A stretch of 64,000 nt of DNA from Mobula hypostoma (Eukaryota). Shown here piece after piece: positions 540 to 57,475 of the stretch (within the stretch, counting starts at the first letter, position 1; the number at the start of each line of letters is the position of its first letter). The notes under the pieces were generated by a model that was not told where the DNA came from, ran no database searches, and worked only from the letters and a program-made list of their open reading frames with translations. Position numbers and translations under genes: made by a program. Location: the NCBI RefSeq assembly GCF_963921235.1, contig NC_086108.1, positions 40,550,001-40,614,000 of the forward strand. Direction: 5' to 3'.

Positions 540-2454
540 CAATAAACATGAGAAAATCCGCAGATGATAGAAATCCACAGCAACGCACACAAAATGCTGG
601 AGGAACTCAGCAAGCCTAGCAACATCTATGGAAAAGAGTGAACAGTTGACATTTTGGGCCGAGACCCTTCATCAAGACTGCAAAACATAGAAACATCGAA
701 ACATAGAAAACCTACAGCACAATGCAGGCCCTTCGGCCCACAAAGCTGTGCCGAACATATCCTTACCTTAGTTCTAGGTACTTAGAACTACCTAGGCTTA
801 CCCATAGCCCTCTATTTTTCTAAGCTCCATGTATCCATCCAGGAGTATCTTAAAAGACCCTGTTGTTCCGCCTCCACCACTGCCACCGGCAGTCTATTCC
901 ACACACTCACCACTCTCTGCATAAAAAAACTTACCCCTGACATCTCCTCTGTACCTACTTCCAAGCACCTTAAAACTATGCCCTCTCGTGCTAGCCATTT
1001 CAGCCCTGGGAAAAAGCATCTGACTATCCACACAATCAATGCCTCTCATTATCTTCTACACCACTATCAGGTCACCTCTCATCCTCCGTCGCTCCAAGGA
1101 GAAAAGGCCGAGTTCACTCAACCTATTCTCATAAGGCATGCTCCCCAATCCAGGCAACATCCTTGTAAATCTCCTCTGCACGCTTTCTATGGTTTCCACA
1201 TCCTTCCTGTAGTGAGGCGACCAGAACTGAGCACAGTACTCCAAGTGGGGTCAGACCAGGGTCCTCTATAGCTGCAACATTACCTCTCGGCTCTTAAACT
1301 CAATCCCACGATTAATGAAAGCCAATGCACTGTATGCCTTCTTAACCATAGAGTCAACCTGTGTAGCAGCTTTGAGTGTCCTATGGACTCGGACCCCAAG
1401 ATCCCTCTGATCCTCCACACTGCCAAGAAAGAAGAAAGAGGAGCATTCAGAGTAAGAAGGGGAGGGTTGAAAGAAGTACAAGGTGGAAGGTGATAGGTGA
1501 AACTGGGAGAGGGGAAGAGGGTGAAATAAAGAGCTGGGAAGTTGATTGGTGAAAGAGATAAAGGGTTGGAGAAGGGGAAATCTGATAGGAGAGGATAAAG
1601 ACCATGGAAGGAGGAGGAGAACCAAAGAAGGTGATGGGGAGGTAGGAAGAGATAAGGAGAGAGAGGGAACAGGAATAGGGAGTGGTAAATTTGGGGATGA
1701 TTACTGGAAGTTTGAGAAATCAATGTTCATGCCATCAAGAGGATCCTCAGACGGAATATAAGGTGTTGCTCCTCCAACCTGAGCGTGGCTTCATCACGGC
1801 AGTAGAGGAGGCCATTGACTGACATGTTGAAAAGGGAATGGGAAGTAGAATTTAAATGGGTGACTACTGGGAGAACCCGCTCATTCTGGTGGACGGAGAG
1901 TCGGTGCTCAGCTAAGTGGCTGCCCAATCTACATTAGGTGGCACTTGTTCTGCTTGCAAGGGTAAGTACCAGAAGGGAGATCAGTGGGGAGGGATCAGTG
2001 GACAAGGGAGTAGCGTAGGGGGTGATCCCTGCAGAAAGCAGAAAGTGGAGGGGGGTGAGGGTAAGATGGGCTTGGTGGTGGGATCCCACTGGAGATAATG
2101 GAAGTTAAGGAGAATTATGTATTGGATGCGGAGGCTATGCGGGGGGGGGGGGCGGGGTTAGATGAGAACAAAAGGAACACTATCCCTGTTGTGGCAGCGG
2201 GAGGATGGGATGAGGGCAGACGTGCATAAAGTTGAAGAGATGGCAGGTGAGGACAGCGTTGATGCTGGAGGAAGGGAAGCCCTTTAAAGAAGGAGGACAT
2301 CTGAGTAGTTCTGAAATGAAAAGCCTTATCCTGAGAGCAGATGCAGTAGAGATGGAGAGAAGGGGATGGCATTTTCACAAGTGACAGGGTGGGAAGAGGT
2401 ATAGTCCAGGTAGCTGTGAGAATCAGTGGGTTTCTAAAAGATGTATCTCTTTAT
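540..2454 (-). mobile_element. Penelope-like element, 3' part (RT C-terminus, GIY-YIG endonuclease region, terminal repeat), interrupted by a CR1
   Basis: ORF 1727-1927(-) LAEHRLSV..PVVTHLNSTSHS..EATLRLEEQHLIFRL matches the PLE GIY-YIG C-terminal motif; terminus 545-680 has a degenerate hammerhead; flanked by CTCTTTAT at 532-539 and 2455-2462. Confidence 0.85.
684..1428 (-). mobile_element. CR1 LINE 3' fragment nested in the Penelope-like element
   Basis: [31 protein letters not shown] (1056-1244) and QRDLGVRVH; (aaacatag)n tail at 684-706. Confidence 0.92.
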
Positions 2455-3234
2455 CTCTTTATTGACTACAGCTAACATTCGATACCATCGTTCCCTCAAA
2501 ACTAATCAATAAGCTTCAAGGCCTGGGCCTCAACTTCTGTAACTGGATCCTCGATTTCCTTACTTGCAGACCCCAGTCATTTTGGATTGGCAACAACATC
2601 TCCTCAACAATCTTCATCAGCACAAGTTCACCACAAAGCTGTGTGCTTAGCCCCCTGCTCTACTCGCTTTACACTTATGACTATGTGGCTAAACACAGCT
2701 CCAATGCTGTACTCAAGTTTGCTGATGACACCACCGCCACTGGCTGAGTCAAAGATGGTGACAAATCAGCATATAGGAGGGAGATTGAAAATCTGGCAGA
2801 GTGGTGTCACAACAACAATCTCTCACTCAATGTCAAGAAGCTGATTATTGAATTCTGGAGAAGGAAACCAAAGGTCCATGAGCCAGTCTTCATTGGAGAA
2901 TCAGAGATGGAGAGCGTCAGGAACTTTAAATTTTTTGGTGTTATAATTTTGGAGGACCTGTCCTGGGCCCAGCTTGTAAGTGCAATTACGAAAAAAGAAC
3001 ACTTCTTTAGAAGTTTGAAAAGATTTGGCATGACATCTAAAACTTTAACAATCTTCCCATAGATGTGTGGGGGAGAATATACTGACTGTCCGCATCAAGG
3101 CTGGTATGGAAACACCAATGCCCTCGAATGGAAAATGCTACAAAAAGTAGTGGATATGGCCTAGTCCACCATAGGTAAACACCCCCTCACCATTGAGCAC
3201 ATCTACATGGAAGGTTGTCACAGGAAAGCAGCAT

Positions 3235-3370
3235 TCAGTCCTGACGAAGGGTCTCGGCCTGAAACATCGACTGCACCTCTTCCTAGAGATGCTGCCTGGC
3301 CTGCTGCGTTCACCAGCAACTTTTATGTGTGTTGCTTGAATTTCCAGCATCTGCAGAATTCCTGTTGTTT
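3235..3370 (+). mobile_element. 136-bp Penelope-terminus micro-insertion with TSD GCAGCAT
   Basis: GCAGCAT at 3228-3234 and 3371-3377; homologous to 545-680 and 5158-5248; interrupts the Rex1 frame. Confidence 0.9.
3236..3273 (+). ncRNA. Minimal type-I hammerhead ribozyme motif
   Basis: CAGTC-CTGACGA-AGG-gtctcgg-CCT-GAAA-CA-TC-GACTG: stem I CAGTC/GACTG, core CUGANGA, stem II AGG/CCT, GAAA, cleavage triplet AUC (after 3268), no real helix III. Confidence 0.75.
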
Positions 3371-4724
3371 GCAGCATCCTTAATTAGAGACCCTCACAAC
3401 CCAGGTCATACTCTCTTTTCACTGTGGAAGAAGGTACAGGAGACTCAGCGCTCACACCACCAGGTTCAGGAACAATTATTGCCCCTCAACCATCAGGCTC
3501 TTGAAGCAAAGGGGTAACTTCACACCACATCACTTGTCCCATCACTGAAATGTTCACACAATCTATGGACTCACTTTCAAGGACTCCTCATCTCACGTTC
3601 TTCATATTTATTGTTTATTTTTTTTGTATTTGCACAATTTGTTATCTTTTGTACACTGGTTGAATGCTCAAGTTGGTGCAGTCTTCCATTGATTCTATTA
3701 CAGCTATTATTCTATTATGGATTTATTGAGTATGCCCACAAAAAAGTGAAGCTCAAGGTTGTATATGGTGACATATATGTACTTTGATAATAAATTTACT
3801 TTGAACTTTGGCCAACACTAACTTCTTATCTCTTATCCTTACACCTCCCTATAAGGCTTTGCATTCCTTGCAGGGTGGACTGAAATTATCTCTTCTGTTC
3901 TCTCTAAGCATAATGTTGCATTTCATTACTCAATTTAATTCTAGCCCTGCACCTTCAAGTTGTTCATCTCAAATCAATTGAAACCGAATTATAAAATAAC
4001 TTAACACCCATTCTGACATGGTTCATTAATTCTCTGTGCTTCACCAGAGTCCTTCCCATTTTCTGCCAACCATCCCAGCAAGCCATAATTTGCTAATATC
4101 AGTTTACCCTGTACCACTGACAGACTGTTTTTAAGTTTTGTATTAATTGTGCAAAGCAAACATGTTGGAAACCATCACGTAAAGCATCAACAGATCAACA
4201 GCAACAACCACCAGCTCTAGAACAGAGAATGTCAGGGATGCACAAGGAGCAGAAATGGAGTAAAGTGGTGAGAGTTTGGAGGAGTTACAGAGAAGGGAAG
4301 GCCAAGAGCCTGGACAAGATTGAATCAATGTCAAAATTACTTTTGTCTGTAAATGGAAGTTTCACTCTAAATGACAATGCCAGAGGGCCTGCCTAGCTGT
4401 TTTACTTAGTCACTGATTTAGCGTTAATCTTCACCGCTTTTCTTGCCTGTAATAACTCTGCAGAGTCTGACAGCTTCAGGATGGAGCCAATATGAGAAAA
4501 TAATCCATGGAGAGATGTTTAAAATTAGTAGTAAGTTGCATCAATCAGCAATTGGCATCAAGTGGGAAAAGGCATCCTGGCAAAGGAATCGAGAGGCAAC
4601 AGTGGGGAGAGCTCCAGGCATCATGAGCCGCACAATTGATGACTGCATTCTTGCAGTGATATTAACACATCACTACAACCAAAGTCAAGCACAATTGAAC
4701 AATTATTTTTGAAGTACAAAATGT

Positions 4725-5157: not shown

Positions 5158-5248
5158 CAACACACATCAAAGTTGCTGGTGAACGCAGCAGGCCAGGCAG
5201 CATCTCTAGGAAGAGGTACAGTCGACGTTTCAGGCCGAGACCCTTCGT
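5158..5248 (-). mobile_element. 91-bp Penelope-terminus micro-insertion, truncated inside the hammerhead core
   Basis: TSD CATAAGTCACTA (5146-5157) / CATAAATCACTA (5249-5260); minus strand reads (tg)acgaagggtctcggcctgaaacgtcgactg...gatgtgtgttg. Confidence 0.88.
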
Positions 5249-5296
5249 CATAAATCACTATTACTTACAAAAGGGGACATTTGAAACATTGAGCCC

Positions 5297-5590: not shown

Positions 5591-5659
5591 AATTTGAGGG
5601 TGGAGAGAGATTGAGGGAGTGACAACTAACGAGAAAACCTAAACACCAGAAGTACCTGA

Positions 5660-7047
5660 AGTCGGTGGTGGGAAAGATGCTGGAGTCAATTATAAAAAAT
5701 GAAATTACGACACATCTGGATAGCAGTAACAGGATTGGTTCGACTCAGCATGGATTTACGAAGGGGAAATCGTGCTTGACTAACCTTCTGGAATTTTTTG
5801 AGGGTGTAACTATGAAAATGGACAAGGGAGAGCCAGTGGATGTAGTGTACTTGGACTTTCAGAAAGCCTTTGATAAAGTCCCACATAGGAGATTAGTGGG
5901 CAAAATTAGGGCACATGGTATTGGGGGCAGAGTACTGACATGGATGGAAAATTGGCTGGCTGACAGAAAACAAAGAGTAGCGATTAACGGGTCCCTTTCG
6001 GAATGGCAGGCGGTGATCAGTGGGGCACCACAGGGTTCAGTGCCGGGACCGCAGCTGTTTACAATATATATTAATGATTCAGATGAGGGAAGTAAAAGTA
6101 ACATTAGCAAATTTGCCGATGACACAAAGCTGGGTGGCAGTGTGAAATGTGAGGAGGATGTTATGAGAATGCAGGGTGACTTGGACAGGCTGGGTGAGTG
6201 GGCAGATGCATGGCAGATGCAGTTTAATGTGGAGAAATGTGAGGTCATCCACTTTGGTGGTAAGAATGGGAAGGCAGATTATTATCTAAATGGAGTCAAG
6301 TTAGGAAAAGGGGAAGCACAACAAGATCTAGGTGTTCTTGTACATCAGTCACTGAAAGCAAGCATGCAAGTACAGCAGGCAGTGAAGAAAGCTAATGGCA
6401 TGCTGGCCTTCATAACAAGGGGAATTGAGTAGAAGAGCAAAGAGGTCCTTCTGCAGCTGTACAGGGCCCTGGTGAGACCACACCTGGAGTACCGTGTGCA
6501 GTTTTGGTCTCCAAATTTGAGGAAGGTCATTCTAGCTATTGAGGGAGTGCAGCGTAGGTTCACGAGGTTAATTCCCAGGATGGCAGGATTGTCATATGTT
6601 GAAAGAGTGGAGCGACTGGGCTTGTATACTCTGGAATTTAGAAGGCTGAGAGGGGATCTTATTGAAACATATAAGATTATTAAGGGATTGGACACGCTGG
6701 AGGCAGGAAGCATGTTCCCGCTGATGGGCGAGTCCAGAACCAGAAGCTACAGTTTAAGAATAAGGGGTAAGCCATTTAGAACGGAGTTGAGGAAAAACTT
6801 TTTCACCCAGAGAGTGGTGGATATATGGAATGCTCTGCCCCAGAAGGCTGTGGAGGCCAAGTCTCTGGATGCTTTCAAGAAAGAGATGGATAGAGCTCTT
6901 AAAGATAGCGGAATCAAAGGTTATGAGGATGAGGCAGGAACTGGATACTGATTGTGGATGATCAGCCATGATCACAGTGAATGGTGGTGCTGGCTCGAAG
7001 GACTGAATGGCCTACTCCTGCACCTATTGTCTATTGTCTATTGTCTA
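5660..7047 (+). mobile_element. Young CR1 LINE, 5'-truncated (RT domain to 3' tail); one premature stop at 6430
   Basis: QHGF..KSCLTNL, YLDFQKAFDKVPH, PQGSV, KFADDTK; ORF continues in frame to 6951; tail (CTATTGT)n. Confidence 0.97.
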
Positions 7048-7204
7048 CCTTGAACATTAGGCCAACAGAGCTTTGTCTGAGTGTGCAGGAGTAATGCTCA
7101 CTTTAAAATAGGCAAATAATCATGGGTTTCCTGACGTCTGGAAATTCTTCAACACTGAAGTCAGTTGTGGAGATGCTTAGAGATCAAAACATCTGATATG
7201 AATA

Positions 7205-9526
7205 GGGAATAAGATAGGGCAAGTGACGTAGGTATGTGTTGGGGAGCACTTCAGGTCCGGTCATCATTATACCATTAGTTTCAATATAATTATGGAGAAG
7301 GATAGGACTGGACCCAGGGTTGAGATTTTTGATTGGAGAAAGGCTAACTTTGAGGAGATGCAAAAGGATTTCGAAGGAGTGGATTGGGACAATTTGTTTT
7401 ATGGGAAGGATGTAATGGAGAAATGGAGGTCATTTAAAGGTGACATTTTGAGGGTACAGGATCTTTATGTTCCTGTTAGGTTGAAAGGAAAGGTTAAAAG
7501 TTTGAGAGAGCCATGGTCTTCCAGGGATATAGGAAACTTGGTTCGGAAAAAGAGAGGGATCTACAATAAATATAGGCAGCTTGGAGTTAATGAGGTGCTC
7601 AGGGAATATAAAGAATGTAAAAAGAATCTTAAGAAAGAAATTAGAAAAGCTAAAAGAAGATAGGAGGCTGCTTTGGCAAATAAGGTGAAAATAAATTCAA
7701 AGGGTTTCTACAGTTATATTGATAGCAAAAGGATAGTGAGGGATAAAATTGGTCCCTTAGAGAATCAGAGTGGACGGCTATGTGCGGAGCCAAAAGAAAT
7801 GGGGGAGATTTCGAACAATTTCTTTTCTTCGGTATTCACTAAGGAGAAGGATATTGAATTGTGTCAGGTAAGGGAAACAAGAAGGGTAGTTACGGAAAGT
7901 ATGATGATTAAAGAAGAGGAAGTACTGGTGCTTTTAAGGGATATAGAAGTGGATAAATCTCCGGGTCCGGACAAGATATTCTCTAGGACCTTGAGGGAAG
8001 TTAGTGTGGAAATAGCAGGGGCTCTGACAGAAATATTTCAAATGTCATTAGAAACAGGGATGGTGCCGGAGGATTGGCGTATTGCTCATGTTGTTCCATT
8101 GTTTAAAAAGGGTTCTAAGAGTAAACTTAGTAATTATCGGCCTGTGAGTTTGACGTCAGTGGTGGGTAAATTGATGGAAAGTATTCTTAGAGATGGTATA
8201 TATAATTAACTGGATAGACAGGGTCTGATTAGGAACAGTCAACATGGATTTGTGCGTGGAAGGTCATGTTTGACAAATCTTATTGAATTTTTTGATGAGG
8301 TTACTAGGAAAGTTGACGAGGGTAAAGCGGTGGATGTTGTCTATATGGACTTCAGTAAGGCCTTTGACAAGGTTCCACACGGAAGGTTAGTTAGGAAGAT
8401 TCAATCGTTAGGCATTAATATCGAAGTAGTAAAATGGATTCGGCAATGGCTGGATGGGAGACGCCAGAGAGTAGTGGTGGATAACTGTGTGCCAGATTGG
8501 AGGACGGTGTGTAGCGGTGTGCCTCAGGGATCTGTACTGGGTCCAATGTTGTTTGTCATATATATTAATGATCCGGATGATGGAGTGGTAAATTGGATTA
8601 GTAAGTATGCAGATGATACTAAGATAGCTGGCATTGTGGATAATGAAGTAGGTTTTCAAAGCTTGCAGAGAGATTTAGACCAGTTAGAAGAATGGGCTGA
8701 AAGATGGCAGATGGAGTTTAATGCTGAGAACTGTGAGGTGCTACATTTTGGTAGGACTAATCAAAATAGGACATACATGGTAAATGGTAGGGCATTGAAG
8801 AATGCTGTAGAACAGAGGGATCTAGGAATAATGGTGCATAGTTCCCTGAAGGTGGAATCTCATGTGGATAGGGTGGTGAAGAAAGCTTTTTGTATGCTGG
8901 CCTTTATTAATCAGAGCATTGAGTATAGGAGTTGGGATGTAATGTTGAAATTGTAGAAGGCATTGGTAAGGCCAAATTTGGAGTATTGTGTACAGTTCTG
9001 GTCACCGAATTATAGGAAAGATGTCAATAAAATTGAGAGAGTACAGAGGAGATTTACTAAAATATTGTCTGGGTTTCATCTCCTAAGTTACAGAGAAAGG
9101 TTGAACAAATTAGGTCTTTATTCTTTGGAGCGTAGAAGGTTGCGGGGGGACTTGACAGAGATGTTTAAAATTATGAGGGGGATTGATAGAGTTGACGTGG
9201 ATAGGCTTTTTCCATTGAGAATGGGGGAGATTCAAACAAGAGGACATGAGTTGAGAGTTAAAGGGCAAAAGTTTAGGGGTAACATGAGGGGGAACTTCTT
9301 TACTCAGAGAGTGGTAGCTGTGTGGATCGAGCTTCCAGCAGAAGTGGTTGAGGCAGGTTCGATGTTGTCTTTTAAAGTTAAATTGGATAGATATATGGAC
9401 AGGAAAGGAATGGAGGGTTATGGGCTGAGTGCAGGTCGGTGGGAGTAGCTGAGAGTAAGAGTTTGGCATGGACTAGAAGGGCCGAGATGGCCTGTTTCCG
9501 TGCTGTAATTGTTATATGGTTATATG
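7205..9526 (+). mobile_element. CR1 LINE, second subfamily, 5'-truncated ORF2 (end of APE, full RT); three in-frame stops, no frameshift
   Basis: ORFs 7292-9448 all in one frame: KSPGPD, NYRPVSLTSV, DFSKAFDKVPH, KYADDTK; tail (GTTATATG)2; probable TSD ATATGAATA 7196-7204 / 9522-9530. Confidence 0.97.
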
Positions 9527-11417
9527 AATACCTCAGAGGCTTATTTCTGTTCTGTAATTGGACCAGGGATGAGGGCGCAAATCGGGAGAAGACACATAGT
9601 GAAAAGTTGGTGAAGTGGGGTGGTGATTACAGGTGACCAAAAGAGAGGGTAATGATCGCAGAGGGTCATGTTCACAGGAGGCACCATCTGTCCAATAGAG
9701 TCCACAAAGACTCAGTTCCCTTGTATTAGAAGACCAGGCACAGTGGTGCAGAAAGCTGGGATCACCAGTTTGGATGATTTGGAGAATATCTGCTCTCTAC
9801 ATAATTTGCTAGCTGCTCATTAGCAGGATTGGTGGAGGTGCTCTCTGTCCTCAGTCTTCATTTTCAGCTCACTCTGGGCACAACCAAAGCCTGATCTTCC
9901 AGTCAGCTCACGTACTTGCAAAGAATGAGTTTGTATGACCATGAATCTATGGATACTGGGACCCACATCTGTAGCTGTTTTTCCACAGCTACATATACCA
10001 TCCCTGTTGCCAAATAAATTTCCGTGAGGAGCACTGAACAGCCCACACTGAAGTTTCAGACAGATAAGCTTCAGATTCCCTGGGAGGTGACACAGTGCTT
10101 TCTCCTTGTGCTGGTACACCACTCCTCTTGTGCTTGTGGCAATGAGACACGTTATCAAACAAAGCGGGAAGTATGTGTGAGAAGCATTTCAAGTGTCTAA
10201 AGTGCTTGAAGGCCTCCTCCAGCTAGAGTGTCTATAATAACCAAGATGACGCATAGGACAGTGCAGAAATCTCAGAGGACAAACCTCTTGCTATTCTTCC
10301 ACCAGTGAGGTTTCCAATCAAAACGAGGAGAAGGTAAAGGGCATCACCACCGAGCCAAATACAGACTAAATCAGCTGGCAAGCATGTTCTTGAAGCCTCA
10401 AAGTTTCAGTAAGGCAGTTCACAAAACTGAATTTTGACCTGCCCCCATTGCACCTTCACTGACGTTAGGTTGCCAACAATCACAATTCATCACTGCATGT
10501 GCAAGAACTGGCTTCGTTCCATTTATGTCCTTTTCAGTTATGATTAAACAGTAAAAAAAAGCGTCAGTTGTCAAGAACGGTGAATATAAATTAAAACATT
10601 TTCTGTGATTTAATAACTAAATGAAACTTTCTAACAACAAAGAAGCATGCTTTTCTTCAGTAGGCTATGCGGCCCTTTCAGAACATAAACACAAGAGATT
10701 CTGCAGATGGCCTGGCAGAACATCCCAAGTGCATCCCTTGTTGTAATGTAGGAAATACATCAGACTATTTCAGCATAGTAATCTCCTAAACATTACTGTG
10801 AGAATGACTCATGGGCTTGTGATTATCAGAGACAGTCTCCCCTGCTCTCTTAGTCATTTTTCAGGCTACAAGCTGATGATAGCATTATAGGTTTCCTATT
10901 CCAAATAGCTCCAGGGGAGGTGATGGTGAGCCACTTTCTGAAATGCTGGTCTTGATTAAGCTTAAACTAAGACAGTAAAGGAGCCAGCACTACAGGCAGA
11001 CCCCTGAGGGTACGGTCCTGGGACAATGAACTTGCAGGGCAGTCACCCAACAGCGAACTCAAACAGGGTTCTAACAGGCACTGAGCCGGACTGCACACAA
11101 GCGAAGGAGCTGCTCGATGGAGACATTTTATAAATACACACGTGGCAGAAGTGTACATGTAGACATGTTCATTGACATGCGGCAGTGTAGAGGTTGCACA
11201 TGAATAGACACCAGGGACTGGGCCACTGATTCTGCAGGACAGGAAAACCACAACTCAACACTGGGCCCCGAGGGGCGCCAGTGCGCATGCGTATGGATTA
11301 GACGTGTTTGGTCAGTGTTCCTCTCCAAGGCCTCAATAAAATTACTATTATACCGTGCTTTATTCATTCATAGGCCAACAGTGCATGTCTAAACTAAGTG
11401 TCCGGAAAAGTTTGACA

Positions 11418-12271
11418 ATGCCGAAGGCAAATAAAGCCAAGACCGCCGACTGCCAAACGACTGGAGTTAGTGTTAACAACAGGTCTGTAAAGAACTTCTC
11501 GGCGTCTGAGATACCACCGGATGAAACATATGCCACGTGCAAGGAGTTGGGTCAGGAGATTTCTGAGTCAGTTCTGCGCGGCATTAACGACCGCTTTGAT
11601 GTTTTTGAGACCAAGTTTCAGACACTTGTGGCCTCACAGGCCGATCTACAAGTCCGTGTGGCTAATCAAGAACTAACCGCTAGTGACCTTGAAGCACGCG
11701 TGCAAGAGCTTGAATCTAAGTATTCAGAGCTAATGAGACAAAATAGCCAGCTCCAAGCTAAAGTGCTTGACATAGAGGCTCGTTCCCAGAGACGTAACAT
11801 TAAGATTGTAGGGATACAAGAGGGTGAGGAGGATGCTAAACCTACTGAATTTGTTTCCAGACTGTTTCCCAAGTTGCTCGGGGAAGAGCATTTCCCATAC
11901 CCAGTTAAAGTCAATCATGCACATCGCTCTCTCCAGCCGAAGCCGGCTGCCAGCGCTAAGCCGCGCACCACTTTGGCACGTATCCACTTTCAAGTGAAAG
12001 AGCTGATCCTGCACTGCAGCAGACTACGACCCATGGATACAAGGGAAACAAAGTCTTGATCTTCCCGGATTATACTAATGAGGTGATGACTCAATATCGT
12101 GCCTTTCGTGATGTACTGCAAACTCTGCGTGATGGAGGAATCAAGCACACCCTGCGGTATCCGGCTAGGCTCTATATTTATCATCAGGATGGAGGAGCGC
12201 CTATAGTATACGACGACCCGATGGAAGCAGCACAATTCTTGGAAAGGAATAACGCACACAAAAGGGAGTAG
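11418..12271 (+). pseudogene. L1 ORF1p (coiled coil + RRM/CTD), frameshift near 12040
   Basis: Heptad-rich segment then EARSQRRNIKIVGIQEGEE, HAHR, PRT, IFPDY, LRYPARL: typical L1 ORF1 motifs. Confidence 0.9.
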
Positions 12272-12794
12272 CTATATTGACACTGTTTATTCAGCTTATA
12301 TTTGTGCCCGTTTCCATGTTGGGGATAAGGGGAGGGACCTGCTTGTTATACATAGTTTTACAATGTTGTATGCCGCACTGAGATTTAATTGCAGAGAATG
12401 TTCTAAATATGTCTGTTATTATAAGGGTTAAATTTGAGTTGGTGTCATGAATGTCCAGCTTCAGGTGTGGACATTGGATAACTCTAACCCAGCCCTAATA
12501 GCATTTATCTAATGGTATTATATAGTTTGTGTTATAAATTTTCTCAGAGAGAGGGTTTGTGATAATTCTGTAATGTTAGTTACCTGCCCAGCAGCTCCTT
12601 TTGGGATGGAAATGGGGAACTATGTGTCTGGTTGTGGGAAACACGAAGGTGGGGTGGGCTAGGGTGTGTGTTGTTCTTGTTTATGGGTCAGACATGCTTT
12701 TTTTGTTTACGTTGTGTTTTTATGAGGCTGCCAGCTATTTTGCATTGTTTACTATGTTTGTGCTCAACTCTAATAATCTCTTTTTTATTCTCAT

Positions 12795-15700
12795 ATGCAG
12801 AGGCCTTGCGGAAGAACGCAGCTGGGGGGTAAAGATATTACAATAGTCTCGTGGGATGTTAAGGGCCTTGGTCATGTTGTTAAGAGGGATAAAGTTTTTA
12901 GACATCTCGAATCTCTATCTGCAGATGTGATTTTTCTACAGGAAACCCATATCAAAGTAACTGAGCTACACAGATTGAGGTCGAGCTGGATATTGCAGGT
13001 TTACCAGTCACTATTTACTTCTCATGCCCGTGGTGTGGCTACCCTCTTTAGGAAAAATATTCCATTTCAACTCACCTCCATGACCACAGATCCTCTCAGC
13101 AGGTTTATCATGACCTCTGGCACCATTAATTCGTTTCCGCTAATCTTCCTTAATATTTACAGTCCAAAGACAGACGAGCCAAATTTTTTTAGGAAAGGTT
13201 TTGATTTACTTTCAAATATAGTAATTGGCAGTGACTTGAATTGCTACTTAGATCCATATTTAGATAGATTGTCCTCCCGCCTGCCCTCAAATATCATGTA
13301 AGCGCAGATCCTAAATAATTTGATTAAATCTAGGAATTTAGCAGATATCTAGGGAGTTCAACATCCCACCGACAAGGACTATTCTTATTATTCTCATGTT
13401 CACAAATCTTATAGTAGAATAGACTATTTTTTGGTTGACTCTCATTTGATTGCTCGTGTTACCAATACAAAATATCATAATATATTAATTTCTGACCATA
13501 GGCCCTTGACAATGTCCCAAAATCTCTCCCTTCCCAAACAAATATATTCATGGTGCTTTAACCCCTCCCTACTTACTGATAAGAAATTTATAGAAAATAT
13601 CACCACCAGATTAAAAGATTTTATAGAAATTAATGATAACGGTGAGCTGTCAGATTCCACGCACTGGGAGACATTAAAAGTTGTAACTCGTGGGTATATA
13701 ATTTCATATGAAACCGCTGCTAAGAGGGAGAGAGAAGGGCGATTATTAGAGATTGGGAATACTCTCCCAACCCTCGAAGCGACATACCAGGCTTCGAAAT
13801 CCTCTGAAGATTATAATAATATAATGAAGCTTAAATACGAGTACAATTGTATCTTGGGTAGTCAAATAAATAACCTCCTCTTAAAATTAAGACAAAAGCA
13901 TTTCAAAATGGAGGACAAACCTGGGGGGGGGGGCTTCTGGCGCAGCAGCGTAGGGGTACCCAGGCCCTAAGGTCAATTCATTGCTTTAGATCGAGGGCGG
14001 ATACCCTGTTAACTAACTCCAAGGAGGTAAATGATTTTAAAAGAATTTTACAGTGAACTCTGCACTTCTAAATGCAATGCCACTCAATCTGATTTGAATG
14101 ACTTCTCTGATTCTTTTGTAATGCCAAAACTTAGTGACACTGCTCGGGAGGACCTGGATTCTGACTTCACATTGGAAGAAATAACTTCTGCCATTAAGTT
14201 ATTTCGGTCCGGCAAGGCAGCTTTGGCTGTGAATTTTATAAGAAATTTTGTGATATCCTTGCTCCACTTCTCCTCAGAATTATATCTTGCTCTAACAGGG
14301 ATAAAGTCTTATCTAAAACATTGTACGAGGCTAACATTTCCCTCATTTTAAAGAAAGGTAAAAAGGAAACAGACCCAGCCAGCTGTAGGCCCATTGCACT
14401 CCAAAATTTCGATAGAAAGATAATTACTAAAATGCTGGCTAATCGACTAAATAAGCATTTGTCATCTATCACTCATCCTGATCAGACAGGATTTATTCCG
14501 GGTAGTTTCTCTTTTTCCAATGTCAGATTCTTCTGTAATACTATATATGCTGATCATGGGAAAGTTAGTAGGGCAGCAATTTTATCCCTTGATGCACAGA
14601 AGGCTTTTGACCAGATTGAGTGGCCTTACATGTTTGAGTCACTGTACAGGTTTGGATTCAGCGAGTCATTTATTTCCTGGGTAAAACTGATATACAACAG
14701 CCCAATGTGTTTTATTATAACTAATGGTGACAATTCAATTCAATTACATCTTTGCCGTCGCGGTAGAGCCCATTGCCCTAAAAATAAGAAGTCAACCAAA
14801 TATTGTGGGTTTGAAAGTGGGAGGTATTGAAACACTTATTAGTTTATATGCCAACGATGTGATACTCTACTTACAAAACTCAGAAAAGGTAGTCCCCCTT
14901 CTTCTAGATTTAATCACCTCTTTTGGCAGACTATCGGGATACTCAAACAATTGGCCAAAAAGTGACTTCGTGACCCTATCCATCGTCTACACGTGGGGTT
15001 TTTTGGAAAGTGTCCCATTCAAAGTAGTTAAAGATCACTTTACTTATCTTGGTTTGGCAATCCCCAAAGATCCTAAATTAATATTTGAATTAAACTTTGC
15101 AGAGTTTATTTCAAAACTTAAACAAAATATAGGAAGTTGGAAAACCCTACCTCTGTCCATGATTGGTCATATAAATTCAACTAAAATGGTTTCCCTTCCT
15201 AGGTTTCTCTATCTTTGTCAAAATCTCCCCATTTTTCTTACATCAGCCTTCTTTAAAGAATTGGACTCCATAATATTGTCTTATATCTGGAATTAAAAGA
15301 ATCACAGGATTTTGAAAATTCATTTACAAAAGCCCAAGTCTGAAGGAGGGCTGGGATTACCTGTATTTAGACACTATTATTGGGCTGTCAATGCTAGGGC
15401 TTTAATGTTTTGGCAAAAGGGGCTCTGCATAACCTATCCCCTGGGGCTCGCTTATGGCTATGTATGGAGTCTAACTCTGTTGTCAATTCCTCCTTGCCAG
15501 CCATGCTGTTCTCTAAGTTAGAAAAGCCTGGGACTTCAAAAAGTTTAAGTTTTGTTTTGAAAACTTCCGTCAGAATCCTAAATCAGATTAGGAACGTTCT
15601 GAATTTACCAGAGACCTCTGTACAAATACCATTCTGTTTCAATCACTCCTTTCTACCCTCATGGTCAGATAGAACCTACCATGCTTGGAGGGAGAAGTGT

Positions 15701-16547
15701 CTAGTTTCTATTGAAGACCCGTACATAGAGGGATGGTTTGCAACATTTAGTCTGCTGAAAGAGAAATTTGAGCTGCCTCATTCGCACTTTTTTCATTACT
15801 TACAAATTAGACACTACGTTCAATCTAAGATTTGTAATTTTGAAATCCTTCCAGGGAAGCATATATTTTTTGATATTTTAAAGAACCCTCCTGACTCCAG
15901 GCATCTCATTTCTAAGTTTGTACGTTTGTTTGATGATTGTACTGTAGCGTCTACTGTGAAGATTACAGATGCCTGGAGAGAGGAGTTGGGCATTGAATTA
16001 TCTGAAGCTGCCTGGGACAAGAGTTTGTCTATGATACAGGCTTGCTCTGTTAACAACAGACACCAACTGATTCAGTTTAAATTTGTCCATTATCTCCATT
16101 ACTCTAAACTTAAATCGCACAGATTTACCCTTCTGTCTCACCAATGTGTGATAGATGCCAAGGGATGGAGGCCATGTTGTCACACACCTTTTGGTTTTGC
16201 CATCATTGACTGGATTTTGGTCCAAAATATTTGACTGGTACTCAAAGGCCTATGAAAGATCCTTCCCCTTGGAAGCTGGTCTCGCCATCTTTGGCTGTTC
16301 ACAATCTACTCTATGCTTCTCTACAGCCATACAACAGTCTCTGATGCTGAGGATGATTGTCGCGAAAAGACTTATCTTGAGGGAATGGAAATCACCCTCT
16401 CCCCCTTCCTTTCGGAGATGGATGGCTGACATGACCTCAGTCATACAGATGGAGAAACTCAGGTTCTTGAGAACCAATTCAATTAAAAAGTTTTCAGCTA
16501 TCTGGGATCCATTTCTTGCCTACCTGGATGAGGCCGGGGGCGGATGA
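12795..16547 (+). pseudogene. L1 ORF2p (APE + RT + Cys-rich C-terminus), several frameshifts and stops
   Basis: SWDVKGL, FLQETH, ISDH, RPIAL, DQTGF, SLDAQKAFD, LYANDV (degenerate YADD), GGLGLP, CDRC..HTFWFC. Confidence 0.93.
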
Positions 16548-19945: not shown

Positions 19946-20990
19946 TCAAGTCAAGTCAAGTCAAGTCACTTTTTATTGTCATTTTGACCATAACTGCTGG
20001 TACAGTACACAGTAAAAACGAGACTTTTTCAGGACCATGGTGCTACATGAAACAATACAAAAACTACACTGAACTACGTAAAACAACACAAAACGACACT
20101 AGACTACAGACCTACCCAGGACTGCATAAAGTGCACAAAACAGTGCAGGCATTACAATAAATAATAAACAAGACAATAGGCACAGTAGAGGGCAGTAGGT
20201 TGATGTCAGTCCAGGCTCTGGGTATTGAGGAGTCTGATGGCTTGGAGGAAGAAACTGTTACATAGTCTGGTCGTGACAGCCCGAATGCTTCGGTGCCTTT
20301 TGCCAGATGGCAGGAGGGAGAAGAGTTTGTATGAGGGATGCGTGGGGCCCTTCATAATGCTGTTTGCTTTACGGATGCAGCGTGTGGTGTAAATGTCTGT
20401 AACGGCAGGAAGAGAGACCCCGATGATCTTCTCAGCTGACCTCACTATCTGCTGCAGGGTCTTGCGATCCGAGATGGTGCAATTTCCGAACCAGGCAGTG
20501 ATGCAGCTGCTCAGGATGCTCTCAATACAACCTCTGCAGAATGTGGTGAGGATGGGGGGGTGGGAGATGTATTTTTCTCAGCCTTTGCAGAAAGTAGAGA
20601 CGCTGCTGGGTTTTCTTTGCTATGGAGCTGGTATTGAGGGACCAGGTGAGATTGTCCACCAGGTGAACACCAAGAAATTTGGTGCTCTTAACGATCTCTA
20701 CGGAGGAGTCGTCGATGTTCAGTGGAGAGAGGCCACTCCGTGTCCTCCTGAAGTCAAAAACCACCTCTTTTGTTTTGTTCACATTCAGAGACAGGCTGTT
20801 GGCTCTGCACCAGTCTGTTAGCCGCTGCACCTCCTCTCTGTTTGCTGACTCATCATTCTTGCTGATGAGTGAACAGCAGTGGACTGTGCACACAGCCCTG
20901 GGGGGCCCCGTGCTCAGTGTGATGGTGTTAGAGATGCTGCTTCCAATCCGGACTGACTGAGGTCTCCCAGTCAGGAAGTCTAGGATCCAG
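19946..20990 (-). mobile_element. Rex1/Babar LINE 3' fragment with internal deletion
   Basis: WILDFLTGRPQSVRIG, LSLNVNKTKEVVFDFRR, KFLGV, SFFLQAIRLLN; tail (TCAAG)n on +. Confidence 0.93.
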
Positions 20991-21029
20991 TGTTCTGACA
21001 AGTCTGCCAAATTGACCCATTTTAGGCTA

Positions 21030-24000
21030 TTATAGAACATAGGACAGTACAGCACAGGTAAAGGTCCTTCAATTCAAAATATTATGCTGAACTAATTACA
21101 TTAATAATCAAATACCCAGCTAATCCCTTTTGGCTACAAAATGACCATATCATTCCATTTCCTGCACATTCATGTGCCTATCTTAGAGCTCCTAAACAAC
21201 AGTATTGTATTTTCCTCCACAATCACCCCAGGGAGTGCATTCCAGACATCCACAACTTTGTGTGTATATAAAAAAGTACTTGCCCTGCACATCTCTGTTA
21301 AGCTTACTCCCTCTCCTTAAATGCAAGCCTTTTCTTATTAGACTCTTCAAACCTGGGTAAATAATACTGGCTGTCTATTCTATCTATGTCTCTCATAATC
21401 TTATAAACCTCTATCAGATTTCCCCTCAGCCTTCATCACCCCAGATAAAGCGACCCAAGTTTCTATAATCTCTCCTTATAGAACATGCCCACTAATCAAG
21501 ACAACATCCTGATAAACTTCTTCCACACTTTCTCCAAAACCTCAATATCTTTTATATAATGGAGTGACCAGAATTGAATGCAATACTCCAGATGTGAATA
21601 CACCATAATCTGCGCGGATTGGTGATAACATATCCTCCTCACTGACCATGAACACTGGCGCACCTCAGGGGTGTGTGCTTAGCCCACTGCTCTACTCTCT
21701 GTATACACATGACTGTGTGGCTAGGCATAGCTCAAATACCATCAATAAATTTGCTGATGATACAACCATTGTTGGTAGAATCTCAGGTGGTGACGAGAGG
21801 GCGTACAGGAGTGAGATATGCCAACTAGTGGAATGGTGCCGCAGCAACAACCTGGCACTCAACGTCAGAAAGACGAAAGAGCTGATTGTGGACTTCAGGA
21901 AGGATAAGACAAAGGAACACATACCAATCCTCATAGGGGGATCAGAAGTGGAGAGAGTGAGCAGCTTCAAGTTCCTGGGTGTCAAGATCTCCTGAGGATC
22001 TAACCTGGTCCCAACATATCGATGCAGCCATAAAGAAGGCAAGACAGTGGCTATAGTTCATTAAGAGTTTGAAGAGATTTGGCATGTCAACAAAAGCACT
22101 CGAAAACTTCTATAGATGGGTACTGTGGAGAGCATTCTGACAGGTTGGGTCACTGTATGGAGGAACTACTGCACAGGACCGAAAGAAGCTGCAGAAGGTT
22201 GTAAATCTAGTCAGCTCCATCTTGGGTACTAGCCTACAAAGTACCCAGGACATCTTTAGGGAGCAGTGTCTCAGAAAGGCAGCGTCCATTATTAAGGACC
22301 TCCAACACCCAGGGCATGCACTTTTCTCACTGTTACCATCAGATAGGAGGTACAGAAGCTTGAAGGCACACACTCAGCGATTCAGGAACAGCTTCTTCCC
22401 CTCTGCCATCCGATTCCCAAATGGACATTGAATCTTTGGACACTACCTCACTTTTTTTTAATATACAGTATTTCTGTTTTTGCATGTTTTTAAAAATCTA
22501 TTTAATATACATAATTGATTTACTTGTTTATTTATTGTTTTATTTTATTTATTATTTTTTTCTCTGCTAGATTATGTATTACATTGAACTGCTACTACAT
22601 TAAAGCTGCAAATGAACTTCTCAACTCTTGAACTCAGTTTGTTGACTGATAAAGGCAAGCATGCCAAAAATCTTGTTTACCATCCTATCAACCTGTGCAG
22701 CCACTTTCAGGGAGCTATGGACTTGGACCCCAAAATCCCTCTGCATATCAACATTGTTTAGGGTTTTATCATTTGGTTTGATTTCCCAAAGTCCAACACT
22801 TCACGTTTGACCAGGTTAAACTCCATGCATATCTGCAACAGTCCTAATGGGATATCCCTCTGTATTCTTTGCCAGTCATCTATGCTGTTCTCAATACCAC
22901 CAATGTTCATATCATTTGCAAACTTACTTGCTCATGCATTTATGTTTTCATTCACGCCATTTATAAATATCATAACCAGCAGAGGCCTCAGTACATATCC
23001 CTCCAGAACACTGCTAGTCACAGAGCTCCAGCTGGAGTCAGTCCCATCAACCACTACCCTCTGTCTTCTACAGGCAAACCAATCCTGAGTTCAAACGGTC
23101 AATTCACCATGGGGCCCATGCATCTTGATCTTCTGGGTGGGTCCATGAGGGGCCTTGTCAAACAGCATATAAAGTCCATGTAGACAACATTCACAGCTCT
23201 ATCCTCATCAATCACCTTCATCAGCCCCACAAGAGCCCCATCAAGTTAGTAAGATACACCTTGCCATGCACAAAGCACAATCTCTAATTAGTCCATGGTG
23301 TTCCAACTAGTCATAAATCCTATCCCTAAGGATCCTCTCCAGTAACTTCCCTACCACTGAAATGAGACCCACCAGTCTATAGTTTCTATAGTTATGCTTG
23401 ATCCCCTTCCTGAACAACGGAACAACATTAGTTACTCACCGGACATCTAGGACTTTACCTGTGATTAGAGAGAGCACAAAGATATTGGTCAAGGCCCTAG
23501 CAATCTCACCTCTTGCTTCTCTCTGTAACCTGGGCATATCCATCAAACCCTGGAGACTTATCCACTTTTCAAGATACTTCTGTATCTTGAAATGCCTTAG
23601 AAAATTATCATGTTTCACTATCATCCCCCCCCCACCCCCACTATCCTTCACATCCTTTGTCTTGATGAACACTGATGCAAAGTACTCATGTACTACCTCA
23701 TTCAGATCCTCCACCTCCTTTCTTTATCCTTAAATGGTCCTACCCTCTCCCTAGTTATCCTCTTGCTTTTGATGCAAGTATAGAATGTATGGGATTCTCT
23801 TTAATCCTAGTTCCCAAGGACTTTCATGGCCCCTGCTGGCTGCCCTAATTCCCTTCATGAGATTTTTTTTCTGGCTGCTTTATAATCTTGAAGGACTCTT
23901 TTTGGTTTTAGCTTCCTCAATCATACATGTGTTTCCTTTTCCTTCTTGATTAAATTCACCAACCCTGACCTTGCCATCCTCGTCTTTCCTTCCTTACTGG

Positions 24001-25239: not shown

Positions 25240-26930
25240 CTTCTAAGATGATGTGGGAAGATGGGGCGCCTTGTACAACACTGATCCACGGTAAGACCCT
25301 GGAAAACACTAACAACTCTCCATATCTGACAAGTCTCCTCTCAGTGTGGACAGACATCGATGAGGAAAATTACAATCATCTTCTGTATGCCAGCACCCCA
25401 TGAAAACCTGAGGAAAAGATGGTTTGATAGCCAAAGCATATAGCTCATTGTCTATAGCCAGCTCTGATCCCTGTGGTTTGAAAACTTTGTCTATTGCAGC
25501 AGACATCTCCAAATATTGAAAAAATGCCACCAGCGTACTTTCTGAAAAATCATCCAAATTCCCTAGAAGGATAAGTGAAGCAATATCCTCCCATTGACCT
25601 CCCACATCATGAAGACCTTGGAGAGACTTGTTCTGGAGCTGCTCCGGCCTATGGTCAGGCCACACTTAGATCCCCTCCAGTTCACCTACCAACCCCGACT
25701 AGGAGTTGAGGATGCCATCGTTACCTGCTGAACCGTATCTACGCCCACCTGGACAAGCCAGCGACCACTGTGAGGGTCATGTTTTTTGACTTTTCCAGTG
25801 CGTTCAACACCATCCGCCCTTGCTCTGCTGGGGGAGAAGCTGACAGTGATGCAGGTGGATGCTTTCCTGGTGTCATGGATTCTTGATTACCTGACTGGCA
25901 GACCACAGTACATGTGCTTGCAACACTGTGTGTCCAACAGAGTGATCAGCAGCATTGGGGCTCCACAGGGGACTGTCTTGTCTCCCTTTCCCTTCATCAT
26001 TTACACCTCGGACTTCAACTACTGAACAGAGTCTTGTCATCTTCAGAAGTTTTCTGATGACTCTGCCATAGCTGGATGCATCAGCAAGGGAGATGAGGCT
26101 GAGTACAGGGCTACGGTAGGAAACTTTGTCACATGGTGTGAGCAGAATTATCTGCAGCTTAATGTGAAAAAGACTAAGGAGCTGGTGGTAGATCTGAGGA
26201 GAGCTAAGGTACCGGTGACCCCTGATTCCATCCAGGGAGTCAGTGTGGACATGGTGGATGATTACAAACACCTGGGGATCGAATTGACAATAAACTGGAC
26301 TGGTCAAAGAACACTGAGGCTGTCTACAAGAAGGGTCAGAGCCGTCTCTATTTCCTGAGGAGACTGAGGTCCTTTAACATCTGCTGGACGATGCTGAGGA
26401 TGTTCTACAATTCTGTGGTAGCCAGTGCGATCATGTTTGCTGTGGTGTGCTGGGGCAGCAGGCTGAGGGTAGCAGATACCAACAGAATCAACAAACTCAT
26501 TCGCAAGGCCAGTGATGTTGTGGGGATGGAACTGGACTCTCTGACAGTGGTGTCTGAAAAGAGGATGCTGTCCAAGTTGCATGCCATCTTGGACAATGTC
26601 TCCCATCCACTACATAATGTACTGGTTGGGCACAGGAGTACATTCAGCCAGAGACTCATTCCACCGAGATGCAACACAGAGCGTCATAGGAAGTCATTCC
26701 TGCCTGTGGCCATCAAACTTTACAACTCCTCCCTTAGAGGGTCAGACACCCTGAGCCAATAGGCTGGTCCTGGACTTATTTTCTGGCATAATTTACATAT
26801 TACTATTTAATTATTTATGGTTCAACTGTAACGAAAACCAATTTCCCCCGGGATCAATAAAGTATGACTATGACTATGACTACTATCAGTGTCCTCACCC
26901 TGGCAACATTGCCAATACTGAAGTTGGAAT
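25240..26930 (+). mobile_element. Old RTE-clade LINE remnant (parts ~25240-25590 and ~26887-26930), interrupted by a Rex1
   Basis: agcagacatctccaaatattgaaaaaatgccaccagcgt..aaaatcatccaaatt resembles the RTE C-terminal RHL..LEK.HQR.LRKI; similar to 60891-61200. Confidence 0.5.
25593..26886 (+). mobile_element. Rex1/Babar LINE 3' part
   Basis: MFFDFSSAFNTI, WILDYLTGRPQY, GAPQGTVLSPF, KFSDDSA, RKSFLPVAIKLYN; tail (TATGAC)n. Confidence 0.93.
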
Positions 26931-27914: not shown

Positions 27915-28633
27915 TTATCGTCATCAACTTTAAATTCCTCGGTGTTATTATTTCAGAGGACCTGTCCTGGGCCCAGCACGTAAGTGCAATTAAGAAGAAA
28001 GCACAGCAGTCCTCTGCTTTCTTAGGAGTTGGCAAATATTCAGCATGAGGCATGATATCTAAAACTTTGACAAACTTCTATAGATGTGTAGTGGAGAGTA
28101 TATTGACTGGCTGCGTTACAGTCTGGTATTGAAACGCAAATGCCCTTGATTGGAAACTCCTTCAAAAAGTAACGGACACGGCCTTGTCCATCACGGGTAA
28201 AGTCTCCCCACCATTAAGCGCATCTACATGGAACGTTGTCGCAGGAAAGCAGCATTCAACAGCAGGGACCTCCACCAGAGGACATGCTCTCTTCTTGGTC
28301 CTGTCATTGGGAAGAAGCCGTAGGAGCCTCAGGTCTCACACCACCAGGTTCAGGACCAGTTGTTACCCCTCGACCATCAGGCACTTGAACCAAAGGGGAT
28401 AACTTCACTTGTTCATCTTTGAAATGTTCCCACAGCCTATGGACTCACTTTTAAGGACTCTTCATCTCATGTTTCTGATATTTATTGCTTAATTTTTTTT
28501 TTTGTCTTTGTACCGTTTGTTGTCTTTTCCACATTGGTTGAATGCCCAAGTTATTACGGTCTTTCATTGATTCTATTAACACTCTATTATGGAGCATGCC
28601 TGCAAGAAACATTTATGTACTTTGCCAATGAAT
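27915..28633 (+). mobile_element. Rex1/Babar LINE 3' fragment (same subfamily as 2455-3810)
   Basis: FKFLGV, RSLRSHTTRFRTSCYPSTIR; 3'UTR similar to 3510-3810; tail ctttgaactt. Confidence 0.85.
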
Positions 28634-35666: not shown

Positions 35667-36357
35667 GCAAGCTTCTTTCTTTCTCTTGTTGAGATGTTCC
35701 ACATATTTTATCAACCATGTTTCCATTACCCTACCATTCTTTCCCTTCCTCAATGGGACATAATTATCCAAAGCCCCATGCAAGGGCTCCCTAAACAACC
35801 TTCATATTTCTTCATCCTTTTTGTGGATTCAATGTGCATTCAGACATGGTGCCTTTAAATCTCATCTTTTACCGTTTTCGTCACTCTGACTGTTTTTGTG
35901 CACGCCTTTATTTCCACTGTCTGTTTACTTATTACATTTCCGACTCCCACTTCTAGGATTGTTTCTCTCCCTCTTGGCTCTCCTCTCAGTTTCACATCAC
36001 CCTTCCCAAGCACAGGGAACACACCATTGCAAGGATAGTCCCAGTTTTGTTGAGTATAACCATTTGATTTGTACAGGTCACAACTGTCTCCAAAGTCTAA
36101 AGTCTTCCCTCATGCACTATTTCTCAACTCATGCATTCATTTATTCTGCCTTCTTTCTGTTTTTGTTAACACTGGGAGTAACCCTAAGATTACTTCCTTT
36201 CAGATTATTTATAAATATGTGTGTGTATCTTTTCACCTCCCCATCATCTTCCTCAGTTATTGATAATGCCTGTTGGTCAGAATTCTTTATTTTTTTAATC
36301 CTCTCAGCAGCAGTTCAGTGAGCTTCTTGATCCTAGGACCTGGAAGGTAACATACTA

Positions 36358-36714
36358 AGGGATTGGACACGCTGGAGGCAGGAAGCATGTTCCCGCTGAT
36401 GGGCGAGTCCAGAACCAGAGGCCGCAGTTTAAGAATAAGGGGTAGGCCATTTAGAACGGAGTTGAGGAAAAACTTTTTCACCCAGAGAGTGGTGGATATA
36501 TGGAATACTCTGCCCCAGAAGGCTGTGGAGGCCAAGTCTCTGGATGCTTTCAAGAAAGAGATGGATAGAGCTCTTAAAGATAGCGGAATCAAAGGTTATG
36601 GGGATAAGGCAGGAACTGGATACTGATTGTGGATGATCAGCCATGATCACAGTGAATGGTGGTGCTGGCTCGAAGGGCCAAATGGCCTACTCCTGCACCT
36701 ATTGTCTATTGTCT
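36358..36714 (+). mobile_element. Young CR1 3' fragment, same subfamily as 5660-7047
   Basis: About 10 differences over ~357 bp versus 6683-7040 (hand count); TSD ATACTA 36352-36357 / 36715-36720. Confidence 0.95.
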
Positions 36715-37292
36715 ATACTACTAAACAGGGACTCTTCAGAGACAGATGCACCTAGCTTCTCCCCAAGTCAAATTTCCTTTAACGTTAGCAGCTCTCGCTT
36801 CTTCATCTTCTCCTGTATAGCTGCCACACTCCCAGTTCTAGCTGTGCTCCCCAGGGGACCATTCTCCTCACCACAATCCAAATCCTGTACATGAGACAGG
36901 CAGACTCATGGGGACTCCTGGATGACCTATCTGCTTCTTCCAATTTACCTGCTGGTCTGTACGCTCTCTTACAACTCTATCAGTAGCTGATGATGAGGTC
37001 ACACCACTGAAGTGAAGACATTTAACATAATTCCCTGTTCTTTTGTTTAAAAAGATATAAAATAAATATGAGGAAACAGCAGCACTGTAGAGTTGGAAGG
37101 TTGGAGCTGATTTCAGTTTTTACTTTAATGCATGTCCAGATTTGGACTAAATTGAGGGGACATTATTTTATCATGTAAAGGGTTTTAGAGTCATATAGGA
37201 CTTGGGCTTACCGAATAGACACCAGCCATCATACAACCATTCACACTAAGCCCACACCATTTTTTTCCCCTCATCAGCCCCTCATTCCCATC

Positions 37293-48875: not shown

Positions 48876-49358
48876 TGTCAGTAAGTTCACATATGACCCA
48901 AGTGTGGAGAGAGAGAGAGACATTAGAAGTGGGTCAATAGTTCACAGACTTTAATGTGAACAGAGTTTTAAGGGAAAGGAAAACAATAAATGCTCGGCCA
49001 AACAGCATCATTGAATAAAACTTTCAAACAGAAAACTAGGTACCAACACCGCAGCTGAAAGGAATTTCTAAATACAAAACAAATACCACAAGTCTTCAGT
49101 GTCAGTTGACTCGATAGTCCACTTTCTCAGGCAAGGCTGAACGCAGGCAGGCGGCGTAACATTGCTGTGCTTTGCTCAAGTCTTAACAAGTGCTACAAAT
49201 CGAAAAGAAGGGAGTTAAATACTGCCAAATTAAAGTAATAATTAGCTGCAACACACATCAAAGTTGCTGGTGAACGCCAGTAAATAATTAGCTGACAAGT
49301 GCATATTCACAAGCACAATTGCCGAATTTGCTGCGCAGCCAAGTCTGTGGTTGTGACA
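48876..49358 (-). repeat. Gypsy 3' LTR
   Basis: TGTCA...TGACA ends; aligns with 54895-55187; TATTTAA box on minus at 49215-49221. Confidence 0.9.
49249..49282 (-). mobile_element. 34-bp Penelope-terminus micro-insertion in the LTR
   Basis: caacacacatcaaagttgctggtgaacgc is identical to 5158-5186; TSD AATAATTAGCTG 49237-49248 / 49283-49294. Confidence 0.85.
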
Positions 49359-57364: not shown

Positions 57365-57475
57365 TGTTGAAGAAGCGGACAATAAGCTGGAAGAACCCAG
57401 TGGGTCAAGCAACATCTGCAGGACAAAAGGAATTGTTGATGTTTCTGGTATAATGACTGCATCAGGACTGAGAGG
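57365..57475 (-). mobile_element. Old Penelope-terminus fragment with decayed hammerhead
   Basis: gctggaagaacccag..caagcaacatctg..gatgtttc..catcaggactg parallels 595-680. Confidence 0.55.

Follow-up and report, generated by a model that had tools for sequence, protein, structure and literature searches.

A truncated 3' end of a Penelope-like retrotransposon with a minimal type I hammerhead, probably inactive in this copy, in Mobula hypostoma

The insert at 3237-3372 of the window (the whole 64,000-nucleotide stretch of Mobula hypostoma DNA analysed here) is, with a probability which we put at about 0.88, what 5' truncation has left of a 3.5-kb Penelope-like retrotransposon: its 3' end, with a minimal type I hammerhead in the end repeat, the copy in question being likely inactive. 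The motif at 3236-3273 is a real minimal type I hammerhead, of the sort found in Penelope-like elements, and represents a decayed copy of its family. A sequence-only reading of the window had placed it in a 136-bp mobile insert; this insert was found to be a truncated terminal piece of a 3.5-kb autonomous element and not a small element in its own right. The features are listed below, with the basis of each in brackets; element positions are numbered from +1 = 3237, so that C17 is +32.

2584..3710, + strand: decayed host LINE, with the insert in its 3' part (67-79% identity to 21616-22141 and 27919-28590)
3228..3236, + strand: left target-site duplication, 9 bp, one mismatch between the duplicates (empty-site alignment)
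3237..3372, + strand: 5'-truncated Penelope-like end piece, element +1 to +134/136, with hammerhead, spacer and tail (96-100% identical genome-wide matches)
3236..3240, + strand: helix I, 5' strand (fold); C3236 comes from the target duplication (empty-site alignment)
3241..3248, + strand: core C3-A9 (CUGACGA, 3241-3247) and unpaired A3248 (sequence, fold)
3249..3260, + strand: helix II, 4 pairs including the G10.1-U11.1 wobble, 4-base loop (fold)
3261..3268, + strand: GAAA (3261-3264), C15.2, A for G16.2 (3266), U16.1 and C17 (sequence, variant counts)
3269..3273, + strand: helix I, 3' strand (fold)
3334..3372, + strand: optional 35-40 bp tail between two preferred 3' ends (bimodal 3' ends, 100 copies)
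3371..3379, + strand: right target-site duplication (empty-site alignment)
5158..5250, - strand: second young copy, element +6 to +98, without C3 and the helix I 5' strand (alignment)
544..2427, - strand: older Penelope copy in three pieces (544-679, 1706-1930, 1941-2427), 75-78% identity (alignment)
49248..49277, - strand: 30-bp fragment of the same Penelope family, +70 to +99 (alignment)
57380..57470, - strand: old and much decayed relative with neither core nor helix II left (alignment, fold)

The hammerhead motif and its insertion site

Both strands of the window were scanned with a descriptor that combined the core with a minimum of 3 pairs in each of helices I and II, and the only match was found to be 3236-3273 on the forward strand; a single match was obtained in 200 dinucleotide shuffles of the window (0.005 per shuffle). 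The minimal hammerhead core (CUGANGA ... GAAA ... UH) is complete in this copy, by sequence and by descriptor, and helices I and II are formed while helix III is absent, just as the letters had first been read. In the lowest-energy fold helix I has 5 pairs and helix II is GGGU/GCCU with a 4-base loop, leaving A3248 as an unpaired base between positions 9 and 10.1, in place of the AGG/CCU stem with a 7-base loop that had been proposed. This register agrees with the published account of minimal hammerheads in Penelope-like elements (PMC4209133). The 10.1-11.1 pair is a G-U wobble and not the usually conserved G-C, and 15.2-16.2 is C-A (3265-3266), which breaks the palindrome; adding the 15.2-16.2 pair to the descriptor resulted in the loss of the match. 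C3236, taken earlier as the start of the motif, does pair in helix I but derives from the target duplication, the element having T there. The folding energy was not unusual compared to shuffles (z -0.38). The Rfam scan which had been suggested as a check, run on the window and around one full-length copy, identified no hammerhead at E values up to 10. Cleavage is predicted after 3268 (C17), a position assigned from hammerhead numbering.

The empty site is visible in two host paralogs inside the window, and 21616-22198 matches 42683-43244 and 50732-51173, both of which lie in RVT_1 + PF09004 frames. The target duplication overlaps the insert by shared bases at either end, so that the insert length, previously given as 136 bp, is 134-136 bp. 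The tail sequence (3334-3372) is the start of the reading frame in full-length copies, where the frame opens at approximately +90. The related copies noted earlier at 5219-5250, 643-680 and 57435-57470 are indeed family members, but none is intact and all lie on the minus strand; in the older copy at 544-2427 the hammerhead (643-680, minus strand) is broken by the loss of C3, G12 and C15.2. No same-strand partner hammerhead for the 3236-3273 copy was found in the 64-kb window.

The parent element and its family

Close copies of the insert were found to have a common 3' end and a variable 5' extent, reaching into RT and GIY-YIG domains, and a search with the far 5' piece returned copies with a hammerhead followed by the reading frame. 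Two sense hammerheads approximately 3.51 kb apart, forming a direct repeat, were present in 11 of the 12 long regions fetched, and the frame was fully open (1041-1043 codons) in two of the 12. The full-length frame contains DKG, YIDD and GIY-YIG motifs, and its RT and nuclease parts are joined by a CX4CX2C linker, which occupies residues 910-918 in L296. When the whole frame was screened against Pfam, RVT_1 (E 3e-5) and GIY-YIG (E 1e-3) were both below cut-off, while GIY-YIG PF01541 was above cut-off for the nuclease domain alone (E 7e-6). Atlas clusters carrying RVT_1/GIY-YIG match the element at 0.96-0.98, and the best named protein relative of its frame is from bamboo shark (71%); a PDB sequence search with the RT fragment of the element gave no match. 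Partial tandems forming pseudo-LTRs and inverted 5'-truncated partners were also present among the family copies.

Judged on these sequence features, the element is an endonuclease-positive Penelope-like element with one RT + GIY-YIG frame and a hammerhead at each end. The earlier proposal of a Penelope-type minimal hammerhead of type I is upheld. From its linker the element would belong to Neptune or Nematis, a clade assignment made from motifs and not from a tree. In L296 (3662-4600), approximately 310 residues, including a proline/serine-rich stretch, lie ahead of the usual Penelope N-terminal motif, and this N-terminal extension had no Pfam match.

The 3.48-Gb genome was searched with exact patterns, which gave 85,888 matches for the intact core with CG, 15,230 for the CA variant and 12,561 for the TG variant, and none for reversed control patterns; the count of intact-core CG copies upholds the view that the family is spread genome-wide. 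With CG making up 85,888 of the 113,679 CG, CA and TG matches, the palindromic 15.2-16.2 is kept at the family level. CpG deamination on either strand produces near-equal numbers of CA and TG. Since CA is about as frequent as TG beside the far larger CG class, the CA at 3265-3266 (G16.2 to A) is read from the counts as ordinary CpG decay, as had been suggested, and the insert (3237-3372) differs at only 2 positions from the hammerhead end at the 5' side of the full-length locus L300 and at 5 from L296. Position 11.1 is T in 72 of 100 copies (G-U) and C in the other 28 (G-C), and the C-to-T change is regarded as a lineage change because of this frequency and because most of the 72 copies have other CpGs intact.

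A 30-mer at the frame start had 590 exact genome matches, an upper guide to the number of long copies, as 37 of 90 examined end soon after the frame start. The ends of these 37 (from L307-L396) cluster near +200 and +270-320, likely at minor priming sites beyond the tail. Older lineages (L038-L067) were observed to have a longer helix II, U-A and not C-G as the inner helix I pair, and often U at 17; the core is kept in older lineages with diverged flanks, which is partly forced by the search pattern.

Insertion ends and the origin of short copies

The 3' ends of the first 100 intact-core places among the matches listed were found to be bimodal, at +97-101 or +134-137. Inverted head-to-head units (L128-L203) combined one short (approximately +97) and one long (approximately +135) end in 29 of 31 cases, and no short-short or long-long unit was observed among the 31; most had 8-16 bp duplications around the whole unit. 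A 30-40 bp tail on one end only, seen in the same proportion (29/31), is as described for PLEs, and the tail and two RT start sites appear in published accounts of Penelope-like elements (PMC11167929, Craig et al. 2021).

The 5' ends were assessed in 94 copies whose choice did not depend on where they start, 6 of 100 having been dropped as belonging to other lineages. Twelve ended at -1..+2, 6 at +3..+5, 12 at -2..-20 and 9 at -21..-60, and 64 of the 94 extended 5' beyond -20. This amounts to a pile-up at the front edge of helix I, with 4.0 ends per base at -1..+2 vs 0.63 at -2..-20 and 0.23 at -21..-60. In a targeted search with a 13-base search window, 51 of 100 among the matches listed were counted by eye as starting at -1..+2, and a scripted count gave 18 of 30. 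Roughly estimated, the density of 5' ends per base is approximately 1.5% over +3..+14 and declines to 0.7-0.8% over +13..+41, the value at -8..+5 (3.1%) lying above the approximately 1.8% suggested by the unselected sample.

The pile-up depends on the class of copy. Only one of 34 long copies through the 5' hammerhead started at -1..+5, vs 18 of the 94 unselected copies (Fisher p 0.024), and 29 of the 34 went beyond -60. Among short copies that run into the reading frame, and hence come from the 5' repeat, 12 of 19 started at -22..+5 and one beyond -130; the same interval held the start of just 3 of the 34 long copies.

No excess was observed at the predicted cut site. At +32/+33, 5 of 30 loci had a 5' end where 4 would be expected if ends were even, and none of 62 5' ends lay there among copies with the frame start reaching +41. 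Starts at +33, counted by eye, made up approximately 9-10 of about 89 truncated matches vs a mean of about 6 per base, a count in which 6 may be decayed +32 ends, +32 itself has 1, and 11 of 100 matches had been dropped as internal indels. A 31-base short tandem duplication beginning at +33 was seen in L089/L090. Apparent clusters of 5' ends at -45 and -51 proved to be alignment artefacts of a C-rich tract and were gone with gapped alignment.

From published Penelope biochemistry, the insert would have arisen when the element endonuclease nicked the host LINE and the RT began synthesis at the +136 site within RNA that had not been cut. Synthesis would have run back across the hammerhead as far as +1 and left the 9-bp duplication, and the CpG at 15.2-16.2 would have decayed after insertion. 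The two hammerheads of the parent RNA would pair via the palindromic ACGU, and the dimer would cut after C17, probably weakly and with protein help.

The stop at +1 could reflect either start-site run-off, with template jumping for long cDNAs, or a protein barrier near the priming site. Under run-off, a tentative reading that would change the origin of the insert and not its identity, transcription starts at or just before helix I, the RT begins at the 5' repeat and runs off the end of the RNA, and the insert represents the first 135 RNA bases copied in full, much like a 'strong-stop' product. The pile-up at -1..+2 (12 of 94 unselected copies) fits such a fixed end, as do the 12 of 19 frame-entering short copies starting at -22..+5 with only one beyond -130, and the bases around +1 agree with what we take to be the initiator consensus, but they also resemble a 3' splice site. 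Long copies, moreover, pass helix I (1/34 at -1..+5; 29/34 beyond -60), so that a fixed RNA end would demand an efficient template jump, and a single extra G, as from copying of a cap, was present in just one of nine solo copies with a clear duplication.

A branch-point-like motif, a pyrimidine tract and an AG run up to +2, inside helix I (L296:3550-3576; lineages in L136, L160, L175 and L198). The arrangement occurs in at least three lineages, no spliced copy was recognised, and it resembles the Drosophila Penelope intron, which is described as ending at helix I. The idea of spliced copies was dropped, as inspection by eye identified no common upstream exon among copies starting at +1..+3. 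Four of 22 sequencing runs, with contigs presumed to be RNA, yielded neither usable ends nor splice joints and so speak for neither side.

A broader scheme, which we consider somewhat doubtful, would join these observations: the RNA would start at the front edge of the hammerhead, short inserts would be run-off cDNAs from the 5' repeat, and cDNAs from the 3' repeat would jump template (or use tandem or circular RNA), building partial tandems, while one protein dimer would prime both target strands at the two start sites to give a tailed and an untailed arm.

It is very improbable that the 135-bp piece is instead a non-autonomous short element (SINE- or retrozyme-like), transcribed and re-mobilised on its own and seeding active ribozymes. 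Many copies do consist of little beyond the hammerhead and tail, with their own duplications, and the copy number exceeds 85,000; against this, short and long copies grade into each other with common sequence variants, most copies reach further 5' (64/94 beyond -20), and no head-to-tail arrays of short units were found in the 76 regions of the unselected set.

Ribozyme activity and relation to described elements

The copy at 3236-3273 is likely inactive as a ribozyme, because the change of G16.2 to A loses a dimer pair and the window holds no same-strand partner. The ACGU palindrome would give two C-G pairs in a dimer; one of them survives when a CA copy meets a CG partner, neither when both copies are CA, and in co-folding 4 kcal/mol was lost per CA copy, the lowest-energy folds in question not being the catalytic ones. 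Fold prediction gave non-catalytic structures for the monomer, for the dimer and in native context, and for this reason, together with the G10.1-U11.1 pair in the dominant young lineage, the ribozyme of the family as a whole may be weak or off. Published Penelope minimal hammerheads are described as not cleaving as monomers and cleaving weakly as dimers (PMC4209133), and the hammerhead of an Anolis element as cleaving with protein help (PMC11167929). With native upstream sequence (L296:3533-3632), the predicted fold pairs -15..-3 with +5..+16, which hides the core and leaves +1/+2 in the loop of the hairpin.

Stem covariation, to which the sequence-only reading had looked for support, showed no excess over shuffles across the whole structure, with either 7 or 30 sequences. 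Only the inner helix I pair covaries (C-G 10, U-A 12, C-A 3, U-G 2, other 3; n=30), a pattern which, as read from these sequences, reflects about two lineages; the set was drawn with a pattern containing one N too many, so that indel variants and older lineages were included.

It is very improbable that the likeness to a hammerhead arose by chance or that the structure serves some other purpose (promoter, splice site or protein-binding site): a fold energy no better than shuffles, no Rfam match, no overall covariation and no insertion footprint of cutting would suit it, but all core bases and both stems are present at a background of 0.005 per shuffle with reversed patterns at 0, the end repeat lies beside the frame start as in the Anolis element with protein-helped cleavage (PMC11167929), and older lineages keep the core with diverged flanks, if partly through the search pattern.

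The motif class and the element class are both already known (PMC4209133), and the flagged copy itself is ordinary. The minimal hammerheads described by Cervera and De la Pena (2014; PMC4209133) likewise have no helix III, a short helix I, an unpaired base between 9 and 10.1 and a palindromic 15.2-16.2, and those of metazoan PLE pseudo-LTRs are reported there as mostly solo, with a few tandems approximately 3 kb apart around an RT frame. Helix II is given there as 6-8 pairs, vs 4 here, and the Mobula family differs in being mostly G10.1-U11.1 and very homogeneous. Intact-core copies number at least 85,888 here vs about 4,000 in coelacanth and about 9,000 in Xenopus in the same account, the counting methods being different.

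Poseidon PAc of Anolis carolinensis (Frangieh et al. 2024, PMC11167929) similarly has its hammerhead where the end repeat meets the frame. According to the main account, its two RT start sites mark off a tail of 30-40 bases, and uncut RNA is its main template. Its frame opens at stem II, whereas that of the Mobula element opens approximately 90 bases after helix I and has approximately 1040 codons. The Zn-finger-type linker of the Mobula element is, in the descriptions consulted, absent from Penelope and Poseidon. Neptune and Nematis, as described by Craig et al. (2021, bioRxiv 10.1101/2021.04.23.441226), resemble it in their C-terminal GIY-YIG, CX2-5CxxC linker and DKG, and in having partial tandems, inverted 5'-truncated partners and a one-end tail; the linker is common to both, so the Mobula element fits either.

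Non-LTR retrozymes (Li et al. 2026, bioRxiv 10.64898/2026.07.22.740005), reported in one chondrichthyan genome, also carry a type I hammerhead from PLE end repeats. Retrozymes are described as tandem non-coding hammerhead units, whereas the insert is a single dispersed piece, with its duplication, of a coding element. The literature searched contained no description of the abundance of this family or of the 5'-end pile-up, though the supplements of PMC4209133 and Li et al. (2026) may cover cartilaginous fishes.

The family is young and homogeneous, with over 85,000 motif copies and intact full-length members, which makes its insertion ends countable. Such counts bear on ribozyme cutting in vivo, on the RNA start and on the origin of tails and partial tandems, and the long copies that do not stop at helix I constrain the idea that the RNA starts at the ribozyme.

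In the remainder of the window no host exon was recognised in the 55 of 98 open frames scanned. The window is rich in decayed LINEs (RVT_1, Exo_endo_phos, PF09004), at 5623-16544, 20522-22200, 26262-26762, 42431-43408 and 50450-51256, and a 364-bp repeat with 97% identity was observed at 6678-7041 and 36353-36716.
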